A stretch of 64,000 nt of DNA. Origin: a virus (Duplodnaviria; Caudoviricetes). Numbering within the stretch: the first letter of the stretch is position 1; each line of letters opens with the position of its first letter. Under the pieces are notes generated by a model. The model had not been told where the DNA came from. It searched no databases and worked only from the letters and a program-made list of their open reading frames with translations. A program made the translations under genes and the position numbers. Positions 50,226 through 56,845 of this stretch are shown piece by piece. Where the stretch lies: positions 352,001 through 416,000 of the IMG/VR virus record IMGVR_UViG_3300021978_000001; one strand, given 5' to 3'.

Positions 50226-52214
50226 ATGAACGAATTGACTCGTATCGCGCGCTGGGTCGAGCGCTTGGAGCAGGACCTTGATAGCCTGCAACAACGCAAG
50301 GCCCACACTGAGGGGCGCATCGCAAAGAAGATCCGCACACTCGTCAAGATGGCCAACGAAGGTGGTGTCGTGGACCGTGAAGCCTTGCTTGCCTCGCTCG
50401 CAGCGCTGGAGGCGAAGATCGCCAACGCAGAGATGACGCACAAGACCCTCGAAGAGGTCGAGCAGGAAGTGGACCGCATCTACGGTGATCAGTCCAAGAA
50501 CGAGACGTACTACTTCTCGCGCCGTAACAAGGGCGCCTCCGAGCGCGTTGCTGCAACCTTCAAGAACCTCAATGACCTCGGGGATTGGATTAACCGCCAG
50601 CTCCGTGAAGCCGAGCGCAACGCAGGGGATGTCGAGCGCAACCTCGACCACTTCCTCGCCATGAGCATGCAGCTTCGTCGTGATGAGCTTGTCAACCAGG
50701 CTCACCTCGACACGTTCTTCAAGCGCATGGAGAAGCGCCTCTCGCGCTTGCCGAGTGATCGCTTCGAGCTGGAGATGGTCTACAGCGATGTCCTGGACGA
50801 GTTTGCCGGGATGGTCAAGCGCATCAAGGCGATGCGTGGTGGCCGCTTCGATCGTCAGAGCGCCTCGAAGATCTCAAATGCGTTTTGGAGCGCTTCGTAT
50901 GTGCCTTCTGACTTGAATGACTTTCGGATGTATCTCAAGTACGAGGTCGATGAACTCTACCGAGAGGCTCAGGAGTATAGTCTTCCGGTAGTTCACGAGG
51001 CTATCGGCTCTTTCCGGGATGATATGCAGAAAATCTCTCGCCTGCCTTGGGTTCAAGGGACAGAAGCGGAGATCGTTCTAAAGAAACTCCTGGGTATGCT
51101 CAGGGCGTTGCCTGGCCCGAACGACGAGGATGGTATCTCCAGGATGTTGCGAAGTCTTTCTAGCGTGGTCAATGCTTTCATCAAGCGCACACGCAATGCA
51201 GGCTCCAAGGTCGCCGTCAATGGGCTCAATCCCATCGGCAACACCATCCTCGAACAGATGGGCGGGCGTCGCCTCTCTGCCATGCTCGGGGTCCAGCAAT
51301 ACTACGACATCCGCAATGGTGTCGGGTTCAAGTGGCCGAACCGTCAGCGCTCCAAGGGGAACTACGTCGAGATCGTCCTCAATGGCAAGGATCTCTATGA
51401 CATGACGTTCTTCAACGTCTCGCGCTCCGGCAAGAAGCGCGTCGCGCAGTTCAACGATCTCTTCGCAGAGAGCCTCGTGCGCGTCTTCGAGGATCACACG
51501 GGGTGGTACCTTCGTCTGGCCTCGGTCAACGCGTCTGAGGAGAGCACAGACAGCTCCTCGGGGTACAAGCCACGTGATCTCGAAGATGTCCAGGATGACT
51601 ACGATAACACGTATGGCGACCAGGGCAAGAACGACACGTACTACGACATGCCTGCATCCGAGTACAAGACCGAGCTGTACAAGGACCTCGAAGCGCTCAC
51701 GACGTATGTCTACGGCGAGGAGCACGAGAGCGAGTGGGATGGAAAGATGGATCAGGGCTTCGACTCGATGAAGAACGCCTCTCCCGATTGGCTGCGTGAT
51801 GCAGGCGACTGGTGGCGTGACGCCCTGGAAGAGGATGGCCTCGTGATCGACCCTGCGGACCAGCTCGACCTCGGTCAGCCTGGCCCCTACGATTACAACG
51901 CGCCCGAGCCTCTGGACGAGAACCACCCGCTCGGGATGCATGACTGGAATGGTCATGACCCCATGGATGGCTTGCTCGGACGCCAGAGCAAGGTTCAGGA
52001 AGCCGCGCGCAAGTTGATGGCGACCTTGCATAGTGATCACGATCTTCGTGACGTGGCCGCGCGTAAGGAGGTCCTGCACCGCCTCGCCTCGCGTTACCAG
52101 ATCACGCGTGCGCAGGCAGCACGTATCGCCAAGACGCTCGAAGCGCATCCTGTGACGTTGAACACGCCTGCTGCTTGTGGGCGCGTCGCATCAGCGTTGA
52201 TGAACGTGCTCTGA
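50226..52214 (+). CDS. Large mosaic protein, possibly head-internal
   Basis: AAGGAG RBS; N-terminal coiled coil, central TILEQMGG...LYDMTF module, acidic region, C-terminal RVASAL. Confidence 0.7.
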   Translation: MNELTRIARWVERLEQDLDSLQQRKAHTEGRIAKKIRTLVKMANEGGVVDREALLASLAALEAKIANAEMTHKTLEEVEQEVDRIYGDQSKNETYYFSRRNKGASERVAATFKNLNDLGDWINRQLREAERNAGDVERNLDHFLAMSMQLRRDELVNQAHLDTFFKRMEKRLSRLPSDRFELEMVYSDVLDEFAGMVKRIKAMRGGRFDRQSASKISNAFWSASYVPSDLNDFRMYLKYEVDELYREAQEYSLPVVHEAIGSFRDDMQKISRLPWVQGTEAEIVLKKLLGMLRALPGPNDEDGISRMLRSLSSVVNAFIKRTRNAGSKVAVNGLNPIGNTILEQMGGRRLSAMLGVQQYYDIRNGVGFKWPNRQRSKGNYVEIVLNGKDLYDMTFFNVSRSGKKRVAQFNDLFAESLVRVFEDHTGWYLRLASVNASEESTDSSSGYKPRDLEDVQDDYDNTYGDQGKNDTYYDMPASEYKTELYKDLEALTTYVYGEEHESEWDGKMDQGFDSMKNASPDWLRDAGDWWRDALEEDGLVIDPADQLDLGQPGPYDYNAPEPLDENHPLGMHDWNGHDPMDGLLGRQSKVQEAARKLMATLHSDHDLRDVAARKEVLHRLASRYQITRAQAARIAKTLEAHPVTLNTPAACGRVASALMNVL

Positions 52215-52275
52215 ATGAACGGAAGTGGTGTCGGGAGTATATAGCTTTACGAACACTCGATAAGGAGAAGTCCAC

Positions 52276-52917
52276 ATGAGGGACAACGACAGCTACATCT
52301 ATCGCAAAGGCACCACGCCCAACACGCGTATCGCGATCAGCCAGAAGAACAAGCTCTACTCGGTGGCGCGCGGCCAGACTGCGTTTAGCCAGGTCGGGCT
52401 CGTGTCGAGCTTCGGGTTGAGCGAATCGCGCGCTGTGGACGAGGTGCGTGGGATGGGTTACGGTGATCAGATCGCAGAACTCGTGCCCGGAGTCACCGGC
52501 GCCATGAGCATCTCGGTCAGCCGCACCTTGCTCTATCTCGCAAACATCTACCAGGCCATGGGATACGCTGCGGGCATTGACGGCCTCGTGCGAAGCCTCA
52601 AGCACCACCAGTGGCCCTTTGACCTCAAGCAAGAGCTGGTGTTCTCGCGCATCGCCACCAACTCGCAGAACAACCCCAAGCTCACGGTCCCCTCTTCGGA
52701 TGGGGTCAACGAGGCACTCCTCGTGTTCTTCGAGGCTTGCTGGATGGAGTCCTACTCCGCCAACTACGCTTCGGACGCGGCGATGATCTCGGAAGACGTG
52801 GGCATCAAGGCTACCGACGTGATCGACGGTACCTCGACCTACGGCGAGCTTGCTTCCGATGCAGAGTCCACGGGTAACAACCCGTTCTCCGAGATCGGTT
52901 CGCTTCGCTACGGCTAA
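52276..52917 (+). CDS. Contractile tail tube protein (T4 gp19-like fold)
   Basis: AAGGAG RBS; VRGMGYGD..ELVPG, F.ACWM.SYS and I.EDV.I.ATD pattern typical of myovirus/eCIS tube proteins. Confidence 0.75.
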   Translation: MRDNDSYIYRKGTTPNTRIAISQKNKLYSVARGQTAFSQVGLVSSFGLSESRAVDEVRGMGYGDQIAELVPGVTGAMSISVSRTLLYLANIYQAMGYAAGIDGLVRSLKHHQWPFDLKQELVFSRIATNSQNNPKLTVPSSDGVNEALLVFFEACWMESYSANYASDAAMISEDVGIKATDVIDGTSTYGELASDAESTGNNPFSEIGSLRYG

Positions 52918-52932
52918 TCCGTCGCTTTGACG

Positions 52933-52977
52933 TAAAAAAGCCCGCTCTCCTACAAAGAGAGCGGGCTTTTCTTTTTT
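52933..52977. terminator. Bidirectional rho-independent terminator
   Basis: AAAAGCCCGCTCTC (52936-52949) - CTACAAA - GAGAGCGGGCTTTT (52957-52970), A/T tracts on both sides. Confidence 0.9.
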
Positions 52978-53002
52978 CGGGGATGTTTGCGTGGTAACGA
53001 AT

Positions 53003-53031
53003 CGGACCATCCCCGCGCATGCGGGGAAACC
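53003..53031 (-). CRISPR. Solitary type I-E-like CRISPR repeat
   Basis: CGGACCATCCCCGCGCATGCGGGGAAACC, 27/29 identical to the array repeat; no second repeat nearby. Confidence 0.85.
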
Positions 53032-53121
53032 TTTGATACAACCTGTCACACCTTACAACACCGAACTTCGCGTTCCTGTACCGAGTCAAAGGGTACCTCG
53101 ACTTGACACTACCTGTCAAGT
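53032..53121 (-). promoter_or_regulatory. Truncated leader copy with promoter TTGACA-N18-TACCCT
   Basis: Shares TGTACCGA..C.AA.GGTACCTC...TGTCAAGT with the other two leaders; repeat-proximal part differs. Confidence 0.8.
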
Positions 53122-53334
53122 GTTATTCGAGGCTCTTCTCCTCACTATCATCTCTTTCCCTGAGATCAAGCGCAAGACCGAATCTGCGACGGTGCGGCGA
53201 CGGCCATCATCGAAGCAGACATGCGCGCCGTTGTCATCATCCCCGAGAAGTGTTCCCATGCCGTACTCGGGGTGAAGTACGCGATCTCCGCGAAACCACC
53301 AAGTTCTTTGTACGAGCGTCGTGTCTTTTGTCAT
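53116..53334 (-). CDS. Small SH3-like beta-barrel protein
   Basis: GDRVLHPEYGMGTL...VCFDDG; AAGGA RBS; TGA stop lies inside the TTGACA -35 box. Confidence 0.65.
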   Translation of the reverse strand: MTKDTTLVQRTWWFRGDRVLHPEYGMGTLLGDDDNGAHVCFDDGRRRTVADSVLRLISGKEMIVRRRASNNT

Positions 53335-53345
53335 GGCGCTTCCTT

Positions 53346-53603
53346 TTATGCTGGTCGAAAGTTCCCTACCGCCCACCGTAGCAGGCGTCCCATTGCCTGA
53401 ACACTCTCATCTGAGCTTGCGAGCAACCTCGTAGCGGCTTCAGTAGCGCGCTGCTCTGCATCCCCCGAGGTGCCCTCGAAGGCATCCCTCACAGCGCGCT
53501 TGACGCTTTCTGGGACGTCATTGGCGCGCTCCACAAGGTCGAGACCTTGCGTAGGATTTGCAGCCAACGCGTCGGCGTAAAATACCATCGTTGTTCGTGC
53601 CAT
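53346..53603 (-). CDS. 85-aa helical protein directly downstream of CRISPR array
   Basis: GAGGA RBS lies inside the terminal degenerate repeat. Confidence 0.65.
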   Translation of the reverse strand: MARTTMVFYADALAANPTQGLDLVERANDVPESVKRAVRDAFEGTSGDAEQRATEAATRLLASSDESVQAMGRLLRWAVGNFRPA

Positions 53604-53605
53604 TT

Positions 53606-53817
53606 TATCCTCGCCCCGCACACGCGGGGAACACTGGTCAATGTCTGAGCGCACGATCTCAGTGATCGGACCATCCCCGCGCACGCGGGGAACACGGTGA
53701 GGGCTGGAGCCGTCACGAGGTGGACATCGGACCATCCCCGCACGCGCGGGGAACACATCTGGTCCCAGGTCTCGGGTGTCCAGTTCACCGGACCATCCCC
53801 GCGCACGCGGGGAACAC
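53606..53817 (-). CRISPR. Type I-E-like mini-array: 4 repeats, 3 spacers of 32 nt
   Basis: Repeats at 53606 (degenerate), 53667, 53728, 53789; minus-strand consensus GTGTTCCCCGC-N4-GCGGGGATGGTCCG. Confidence 0.95.
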
Positions 53818-53934
53818 TCTTCAAATGTCCAGTTCCGTAAGTCCTCGGATTCTTTACAGAATCCTCGAACCCTCGCGAACCCGCTTCCCTGTACCGACTC
53901 GAAAGGTACCTCGACTTGACAGGTCGTGTCAAGT
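53818..53934 (-). promoter_or_regulatory. CRISPR leader with promoter TTGACA-N18-TACCTT
   Basis: Near-identical to 56653..56767; inverted repeats GGATTC-N6-GAATCC and ACTTGACA-N5-TGTCAAGT. Confidence 0.85.
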
Positions 53935-53935
53935 G

Positions 53936-54187
53936 TTATTCGACGACTTTTCCATCACTCGCAGGGATGAACACCCCCGGCCCGCGTTCGAGCACGGCGA
54001 AAAACCCCTGCTCGCCATTATGGACCCCCCTGTGCGCGGGATGGTTACGGAAAGCGACGCGTCGGCCTTTCGAGCCATCCACGGTCACGTCGATGCGGCA
54101 TTTGGTGCCAGGTCCGATTTGGGCCATGTACGTGTCGGGGTCGATGATTTTGTGGCCGTAGGTGTTCGTGCCGTCTTCGTTCGTCAT
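53936..54187 (-). CDS. Small hypothetical protein
   Basis: GAGGA RBS; own promoter at 54227..54255. Confidence 0.65.
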   Translation of the reverse strand: MTNEDGTNTYGHKIIDPDTYMAQIGPGTKCRIDVTVDGSKGRRVAFRNHPAHRGVHNGEQGFFAVLERGPGVFIPASDGKVVE

Positions 54188-55853: not shown

Positions 55854-56193
55854 GCGGTCGCACGCGCTCCAGCTTCACGTCATCCTGGTGCACGAGTACG
55901 CGCTGTCCTTCCTGGCGTTGGATCTCCCAGCACGCCCATTGCACATCCTTGTAGATGGATTCACACAGGTTCTTGACCTGGTTATAGGCTTCCTTGCCCT
56001 CCTGATACCAGAGACGGTCCATCGAATCCGAATCGAAGAGAAGATAGGTACGCCTCTCTTCGGGCTGAAACCCGTGCGCCTTGTATGCTGCGTCCGGCGT
56101 ATCATGCTCGGTTAGATGAATCGTGAGCTTGGTTTGTGCCAGCCCATCCTCCTGTTGCTTTATCGTACCCATTTTCACACTGAGCCATGTCAT
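55822..56193 (-). CDS. 123-aa protein directly downstream of CRISPR array
   Basis: AAGGA RBS; ATG 14 nt after terminal repeat. Confidence 0.65.
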   Translation of the reverse strand: MTWLSVKMGTIKQQEDGLAQTKLTIHLTEHDTPDAAYKAHGFQPEERRTYLLFDSDSMDRLWYQEGKEAYNQVKNLCESIYKDVQWACWEIQRQEGQRVLVHQDDVKLERVRPLNDPEPRLAP

Positions 56194-56207
56194 GGTTGTT
56201 TCCTTCT

Positions 56208-56652
56208 GGGGCTATCCCCGCGCATGCGGGGAATGTCGTTTCGCGCGTAAACAGGGCATCGAGCCATCCCCACAGATGTGGGGAACATAGGAGGCGAGCG
56301 CCAACATGAGACCAGATCCTCGGACCATCCCCGCACATGCGGGGAAAACATGTCCATATTCTCACCAATGAGTGAGGGCGAGCCATCCCCGCATGCGCGG
56401 GGAACACGGGTATACCCGGTATAGGAGGTATTCCTGGAATAGGGCCATCCCCGCATGCGCGGGGAACACAAAGAGTGGTGCGTGCGCGGTTCCAGACCCA
56501 CCGGACCATCCCCGCACGCGCGGGGAACACGACAGCAGCGCCCACACGGGCATCACACGCCCCGGACCATCCCCGCGCATGCGGGGAACACTCCGTCAAT
56601 GAGGTCAGCATCCGCCCATATTGCGGACCATCCCCGCGCATGCGGGGAACAC
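56208..56652 (-). CRISPR. Type I-E-like array: 8 repeats, 7 spacers (23, 32, 29, 33, 32, 32, 32 nt in ascending coordinates)
   Basis: Repeats at 56208, 56260, 56321, 56379, 56441, 56502, 56563, 56624; degeneracy increases away from the leader. Confidence 0.95.
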
Positions 56653-56767
56653 TCTTCAAATGTTCAGTTCCGTAAGTCCTCGGATTCCTTAAAGAATCCT
56701 CAGACCCTTCCGAACCCGGTTCTCTGTACCGACTCGAAAGGTACCTCAACAGGCCAAACCCTGTCAA
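56653..56767 (-). promoter_or_regulatory. CRISPR leader with promoter TTGACA-N18-TACCTT
   Basis: 34/35 nt identical to the other leader next to the repeat. Confidence 0.85.
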
Positions 56768-56845
56768 GTATGTTTTTTCTCCAGTGGTATTCTTCTTGTG
56801 GCGTGAGCTTTACAGGAATGACTGTCTCTCACGCGAGTTATCATC

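Follow-up and report, generated by a model that had tools for sequence, protein, structure and literature searches.

A single-repeat CRISPR unit in the phage genome

The window, by which we mean the whole stretch of 64,000 nucleotides that was analysed, is part of a complete virus record of 437,490 bp with terminal repeats, which originates from a hydrothermal-vent metagenome. The locus of interest comprises a solitary CRISPR unit, the two genes that flank or overlap it, and two neighbouring arrays on the same strand as the unit.

52276..52917, plus strand: convergent gene for a 213-aa protein with no assigned function; it ends at the shared terminator, and the protein is identical in the sister strains described below
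52934..52970, both strands: bidirectional intrinsic terminator (AAAA, 10-bp G/C stem, 7-nt loop, stem, TTTTTT)
53146-52934, minus strand: solitary unit, in the order promoter, leader, one type I-E repeat, 32 nt, terminator
53002-52971, minus strand: 32-nt guide-like segment, ATTCGTTACCACGCAAACATCCCCGAAAAAAG, homologous to nt 190-221 of a 114-aa gene of the sister strains
53031-53003, minus strand: solitary type I-E repeat of 29 nt, GGTTTCCCCGCATGCGCGGGGATGGTCCG, with a perfect 6-bp stem
53032..53146, minus strand: promoter and leader of the solitary unit; the left edge, 53146, is where homology to the sister strains restarts
53116..53334, minus strand: upstream 72-aa gene, whose last ~10 codons and stop lie inside the cassette, with the TGA within the -35 box
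53606..53959, minus strand: neighbouring 4-repeat array with a class-A promoter and leader (see below), whose terminal degenerate repeat is the Shine-Dalgarno sequence of the next gene
56211..56769, minus strand: neighbouring 8-repeat array with a class-A promoter and leader

The succession of promoter, leader, one repeat, 32 nt and terminator hairpin, which the first-pass annotation of this DNA had pointed out, is real and can be read directly on the minus strand. The promoter consists of a -35 box (TTGACA, 53119-53114), an 18-nt gap and a -10 box (TACCCT, 53095-53090), a spacing that equals that of the working arrays, and the leader is ~55-60 nt long. An independent ENA assembly of the same sample contains the 301-nt segment with the unit unchanged, which rules out an assembly artefact at the solitary repeat. 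None of the public RNA runs is listed with this stretch, and the one metatranscriptome of the source sample contains next to none of its sequence words.

The exact sequence of the solitary repeat is present as a single copy in the 437-kb genome. When 71 repeats were compared position by position, it was found to depart from the genome consensus at positions 2 and 3 only, two bases that only a crRNA upstream of the repeat would require; both the 6-bp stem and the 8-nt handle (ATGGTCCG) agree with the consensus. Positions 2-3 and the repeat-proximal motif of the leader display slight decay. The repeat has the expected fold, and the folding of the unit as a whole is much better than that of its shuffles (z = -4.6). 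Placed from established Cas6e biology, the predicted cut after the G at 53011 would leave the 8-nt 5' handle AUGGUCCG (53010-53003). The sequence therefore holds the 5' layout of a canonical type I-E crRNA, with an 8-nt repeat-derived handle and a spacer of ~32 nt, which processing would bring out. The canonical 21-nt 3' handle with its Cas6e-bound hairpin is absent; the unit has no second repeat, and a search within 130 nt of the solitary repeat found no degenerate one.

The distance between the repeat and the hairpin had been described as exactly 32 nt, the modal spacer length. The mode is correct, as 39 of the 54 spacers genome-wide have this length, while the exactness depends on where the stem begins: the distance is 32 nt if four A-U pairs are counted as stem, and the G/C stem is 36 nt away. 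From its anatomy, the layout would indeed give the RNA that had been foreseen, with a handle, a 32-nt guide and a 3' hairpin, at a predicted length of ~75-77 nt.

The phage encodes a type I-E interference module with the same repeat

About 70 repeats, all on the minus strand, are distributed over 18 loci of the phage genome. Each strand of the genome contains the core pattern of the repeat ~50 times, and the reversed control does not contain it at all, indicating that the repeat family is real and not a chance match. The interference genes lie outside the cassette region:

13.6-22.3 kb of the phage genome (L011:1651-10339), minus strand: type I-E interference module, with arrays between the cas genes

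The module encodes Cas3 with HD and helicase domains, apparently intact, as well as Cas7e, Cas6e, Cas5e and a 725-aa Cse1-Cse2 fusion. Cas1 and the I-E Cas2 family were searched for in the phage genome, and neither was found. Since the phage has its own complete I-E module, the same repeat and ~70 other repeats, the natural client of the solitary unit is its own Cas6e and Cascade.

This inventory weakens the framing of the unit as a crRNA mimic or RNA anti-CRISPR (Racr), which had been proposed before the module was recognized. A Racr-type decoy would titrate the type I-E Cas6e and Cas7 of the host into aberrant complexes by means of the lone repeat. Such elements are recognized by a solitary repeat behind a promoter in viral or plasmid DNA, and this feature is found here; two I-E Racrs have been validated (PMC10651486), and the same repeat type is present in bacterial genomes. 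However, with the phage's own I-E effector genes, the same repeat and ~70 further copies, a decoy would poison the system of the phage itself and would add little. No host with a matching repeat is linked to the marine habitat of the phage: the repeat-pattern search matched mostly Actinomycetota and one Burkholderiales MAG and pointed to no marine host. No recognisable acr neighbours of the unit were found, and a decoy would leave the homology between the 32-mer and the sister-strain gene unexplained. We regard this role as highly improbable. The INPHARED phages gave no match to the region.

Two other lone repeats of the same genome are followed by a tRNA gene at a comparable distance, the repeat at 127051-127079 by exactly 32 nt and tRNA-Met, and the repeat at 127666-127694 by 35 nt and tRNA-Val. 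Single-repeat units whose 3' end is set otherwise therefore recur in this phage. The region around them (120-128 kb, L012, minus strand) contains 13 tRNA genes interspersed with lone repeats, and in the same cluster a tRNA-Ala is followed by 35 nt and then a repeat (123514-123542). A further lone repeat (148854-148882, L013) is located inside what resembles a tRNA-like acceptor/T-arm frame (GCCGGGTGG ... CCACCCGGC), for which ARAGORN calls no gene.

The arrays themselves have several peculiarities. Most of them occupy the 5' UTR of a gene and have a degenerate repeat as their last one, the hairpin of which is intact and the 3' half of which has turned into the Shine-Dalgarno sequence of the next gene (window 53601-53634 and 56193-56236; genome arrays at 110408, 30919, 25472, 23066 and 17852). 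Cas6e cutting at these array-end repeats would trim the leader of the downstream mRNA. Across the 71 repeats, positions 22-28 are nearly fixed and the last base is variable (G 33, C 23, T 11, A 4), as expected if it is PAM-derived, as in E. coli. Two spacers from different arrays (genome regions 28905-28872 and 25949-25916) are variants of each other, with 27/32 matches and the first 17 nt exact, and look as if they were directed against two alleles of a single target.

A leader that combines two classes

Two leader classes exist in the phage genome. Class A, used by both window arrays and three others, ends in a conserved ~50-nt element, and class B, which is found at five arrays with 4-8 repeats, has GTGACA(A/G)G(A/T)TGTCTCAGAG as its end. 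Over its first ~78 nt, the solitary unit is class-A; this part shares 79% identity with the promoter of the 4-repeat array, its best paralog in the genome. The last ~30 nt correspond to the class-B repeat-proximal motif at 20/22 positions, so that the leader ends in the GTGACAGGTTGT.TCA.AG motif common to the five multi-repeat arrays. Judged from this alignment, the leader is a chimera of the two classes and not a truncated form. The repeat-proximal part that had been reported missing is therefore present, in its class-B version, and the deduction drawn from its supposed loss, that the unit does not acquire spacers, falls with it.

The promoter is only 79% identical to its best paralog, and the flanks differ by 1-5% between strains; the cassette is therefore not a fresh local duplication. 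That promoter, stem and handle are intact despite 21% divergence from the nearest paralog argues mildly for maintenance.

Sister strains carry a 114-aa gene in place of the cassette

Close sister strains of the phage are found in contigs from four other marine metagenomes. They match the window at about 95-99% over 52000-52975 and again from 53147/53171 onward. In between, the segment 52976-53146, which comprises the promoter, the leader, the repeat and most of the 32-mer, is swapped for 384-400 other nucleotides. The swapped-in sequence is a 114-aa Cys-rich gene. There is an overlap with the stop of the 71/72-aa gene, and the terminator at which the 114-aa gene ends is the shared one. Its alleles are given below, together with their agreement with the 32-mer and the peptide encoded at the site.

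L093:765-1094, sister contig: first 14 nt 14/14; 26/32 in all; mismatches at 15, 24, 25, 27, 31, 32; IRYHANIPYK
L031:4713-5057, sister contig: first 14 nt 14/14; 24/32 in all; mismatches at 15, 16, 17, 21, 27, 30, 31, 32; IRYHACMPDK
L033:3460-3804, sister contig: first 14 nt 12/14; 22/32 in all; mismatches at 3, 12, 15, 16, 19, 21, 24, 27, 31, 32; IRYHAHLPDK

A more distant relative (L014) has neither the 114-aa gene nor a repeat at the locus. The cassette-bearing phage contains no second homolog of the gene.

The alleles of the 114-aa gene differ by 16% at the nucleotide level, while the adjacent 213-aa protein is identical. They have a hypervariable patch of four codons (CMPD, HLPD or NIPY), and one of them carries a 15-nt insertion near the 5' end. 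At a neighbouring locus of one sister strain, the last repeat of the neighbouring array is fused directly to the middle of an 85-aa gene that is intact in the window (L031:5330-5499, minus strand, compared with window 53377-53408; 31/32 matches), which makes this a second repeat-gene junction. The gene simply runs on from this junction, which makes it a plain deletion. In another relative (G001; L051:7590-7830), an ORF is immediately preceded by a promoter, a leader resembling class A, one full repeat, ~21 nt and a hairpin of degenerate form; the layout is that of an array with one spacer in a 5' UTR.

The 32-mer resembles the sister-strain gene

The homology of the 32-mer to nt 190-221 of the 114-aa gene, a link that the first-pass annotation had missed, is closest for the L093 allele, one mismatch of which, at position 24, falls on a flipped-out sixth position. 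In the frame of the gene the 32-mer reads IRYHANIPEK, and several of the differences are synonymous, which is a coding pattern. None of 20,000 shuffles reached 24 matches with the gene site, and the 3' half of the 32-mer alone, in fixed register, gave P = 0.006-0.02. The site is a divergence hotspot, since 6 of the 21 differences between two alleles lie inside these 32 nt (P = 0.012); the same two alleles are almost identical over their central 200 nt.

A derivation of the 3' half from the 3' UTR of the sister strains (ACAATCCCGAGAAAC...) was rejected. The alignment needs several gaps and is outdone by the ungapped coding alignment, with 10/18 matches (P = 0.006-0.02), or 12/18 with L093.

In related viruses, the best candidate protospacer for the 32-mer thus matches at 26/32, with a seed end of 14/14 and a 5' flank of AAC, and no match is perfect. 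No perfect target was found in a scan of IMG/VR with the sixth positions free, in scans for the repeat|guide junction or the degenerate gene site, in protein-guided scans of IMG/VR and the JGI metagenomes (the latter yielded only homologs with 33-41% amino acid identity), or via protein database searches. All three alleles have AAC 5' of the site, in contrast to the type I-E PAM consensus AAG/ATG, which is that of E. coli (PMC6568314) and may not be that of this system. No other spacer matched a target from which the PAM of the phage system could be derived: more than 40 other phage spacers had no protospacer in the records of ten relatives, the other phage spacers had none in the phage's own genome, and the spacers of the sister strains matched nothing in the phage genome beyond junction remnants.

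Another reading is that of a regulator that only binds. Like CreR or other crRNA-like guides, the 32-mer could park Cascade on a promoter or gene of the phage, a sister phage or the host, and repress it without cleavage. Seed-plus-PAM matches are reported to suffice for Cascade binding in E. coli (bioRxiv 10.1101/169011). The 14-nt identity with sister alleles at the seed end would permit binding also in cases where no cleavage follows. In addition, there are reports of crRNA-like regulators that have stand-alone repeats (bioRxiv 10.1101/2023.03.03.530964). On the other hand, the phage's own 437-kb genome contains no other match of at least 16 nt to the 32-mer, the surroundings of the cas genes included. 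CreR characteristically has partial complementarity to a cas promoter or a toxin gene on the element that encodes it, and at this length such complementarity is accordingly absent. Moreover, the homologous site lies mid-gene and not in a promoter, and the Cas3 of the phage is apparently intact. A purely regulatory guide is quite improbable on these grounds.

An ancestral terminator and a microhomology at the junction

On the minus strand, the hairpin stem is followed by TTTTTT, as in a Rho-independent terminator. The hairpin is a strong terminator on the plus strand too, with 14 pairs and a T-rich tail, 17 nt past the stop of the 213-aa gene. The terminator is letter-for-letter the same in sister strains that lack any repeat at the locus, which indicates that it did not evolve as a repeat substitute. 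The idea that it stands in for the 3' repeat by design is therefore not tenable; from this comparison, the terminator is ancestral and at most co-opted. In one sister strain, the terminator loop and inner stem are inverted (L031:4660-4700 compared with window 52934-52970; CTCCTACAAAGAGAG versus CTCTTTGTAGGAGAG), which looks like a hairpin flip.

The GAAAAAAG that closes the 32-mer is the complement of the T-run of the plus-strand terminator, and the sister strains have the final 5 nt of the 32-mer, AAAAG, as the flank of their terminator. The gene-derived part of the 32-mer may therefore be only 27-30 nt long.

The main rival of a functional guide is that the cassette is an inert scar. A recombination or deletion would have destroyed the 114-aa gene and left a repeat beside a fragment that happens to be spacer-length, either through an exchange between an array spacer and its target or through illegitimate joining of a leader-repeat piece to the resident gene; an RNA might be made and cut, and be useless. 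The AAAAG microhomology where the guide meets the terminator is consistent with such an event, as are the chimeric leader with its two classes, the restriction of the unit to one strain, the lack of a perfect target and the AAC flank, which is non-consensus by the E. coli standard. The repeat abutting the middle of the 85-aa gene in L031 (31/32) offers a second case, by plain deletion. Yet a scar requires two independent junctions to have left a piece of exactly spacer length right after an intact handle. The promoter, the stem and the handle are also intact although the cassette has diverged by 21% from its nearest paralog, and the clean repeat|guide junction is what an array-derived spacer gives. 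We consider an inert scar a serious possibility, though an unlikely one.

A proposed stand-alone guide for the phage's own Cascade

The reading that we favor, and to which we would give an even chance, is that the solitary unit is an independent crRNA gene with a single guide, which serves the phage's own Cascade-Cas3 against sister phages. It builds on the observed anatomy, the cas inventory, the homology of the guide to the sister-strain gene, the replacement of that gene by the cassette and the absence of the target from the phage's own genome. The unit would be transcribed from its array-type promoter, and the phage Cas6e would cut the lone repeat and leave the 8-nt handle. The bidirectional terminator, already present at the locus, would set the 3' end, resulting in an RNA of ~75-77 nt. 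Cas5e and Cas7e of the phage would then assemble Cascade on the handle and the 32-nt guide, with loading proceeding without a repeat-derived 3' handle, and Cascade-Cas3 would be directed at co-infecting sister phages with a sufficiently matching allele of the 114-aa gene. The guide's own copy in the phage would be protected, as it is flanked by a repeat and not by a PAM.

Several findings speak against the single-guide reading. The unit occurs in one genome only, so that conservation offers no test, and the known alleles carry 6-10 mismatches, none being perfect. The Cas6e-docking 3' repeat handle of Cascade is absent. The 50+ other phage spacers are without a target in the relatives, which leaves inter-strain targeting without independent support. 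Finally, the 5-nt microhomology at the guide-terminator junction is of the kind left by a deletion.

As for its origin, we regard a recombination event as most likely; an array spacer and its target may have been the partners, and a deletion at a microhomology, reaching to the terminator, would have come afterwards. Two scenarios fit the data. In the first, an array spacer recombined with the target gene, and the remainder was deleted at AAAAG; in the second, homologous recombination brought in the entire cassette from a lineage that already carried it at this locus.

A more speculative reading concerns the relationship between the two forms of the locus. The cassette and the 114-aa gene would be alternative alleles, with the guide targeting the other allele and, in cells co-infected by two strains, the Cas3 damage being repaired from the cassette genome, thereby converting gene to cassette. 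More broadly, phages without Cas1 and Cas2 might make new guides through fusion of a lone repeat with a gene fragment; this genome has repeat-tRNA units with 32-35 nt in between, and a sister strain has a repeat-gene fusion. With such a conversion, the unit would be a natural CRISPR-based homing or allelic-drive element among giant phages, a prospect that we judge improbable.

If the unit works, it represents a natural type I-E guide for which one repeat is enough and an ordinary terminator supplies the 3' end, and by which a giant phage aims its own Cas3-Cascade at sister strains, the guide being placed where those strains keep the target gene. It would also represent a route to new guides without Cas1-Cas2. 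If it is no more than a scar, it is still a record of how CRISPR units and targets recombine in phage genomes. In either case, the solitary unit looks like a weapon, or a scar, of phage-against-phage conflict and not like an anti-CRISPR decoy.

Comparison with known systems

The Racrs and other viral solitary repeat units (RacrIF1, RacrIE1/2; PMC10651486) share with the present unit a single promoter-driven repeat in a phage genome. They were described as not associated with cas genes and as decoys against host Cas6 or Cas7 (PMC10651486), whereas the genome studied here has Cas3, Cas7e, Cas6e, Cas5e and Cse1-Cse2 and 18 repeat loci, and a spacer-length, target-related sequence follows the repeat.

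Viral mini-arrays typically target related viruses (PMC11656645). The likeness lies in a virus-borne one-guide unit whose guide is related to a gene of a close relative, and inter-virus competition would be the function. Mini-arrays have 1-2 spacers bracketed by repeats on both sides and make use of the host's Cas proteins, while the present unit has one repeat only, a terminator and the phage's own Cas3-Cascade. Furthermore, the match is imperfect here (26/32), and the unit is situated at the very locus of the target gene.

CRISPR-Cas systems of huge phages commonly lack Cas1 and Cas2 (Al-Shayeb et al. 2020, PMC7162821). The phage studied here resembles those described there in its size of >200 kb, its effector genes, the lack of Cas1/Cas2, its short arrays and the proposed targeting of competing phages; terminator-ended single-repeat units and guides at the target's locus are not among the features described in the accessible part of that survey.

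The closest precedent for the 3' end is an engineered unit-sized I-E crRNA (Semenova et al. 2015, PMC4499155), in which, likewise, an intrinsic terminator and not a Cas6e cut in a second repeat sets the 3' end. In E. coli, such a termination-made 3' end gives a functional type I-E crRNA, the repeat's own hairpin being the terminator, and Cas6e is dispensable for interference (PMC4499155). The engineered RNA begins at the handle and ends with the repeat's own hairpin and U8, whereas the natural unit needs Cas6e for its 5' end and carries at its 3' end a terminator hairpin (10-bp stem) that is unrelated to the repeat.

Viral mini-arrays, solitary repeat units and termination-defined crRNAs are already known. 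What is unusual here is the combination of a single repeat and a terminator 3' end in a phage with its own Cas3-Cascade, and the position of the guide at the locus of its target.
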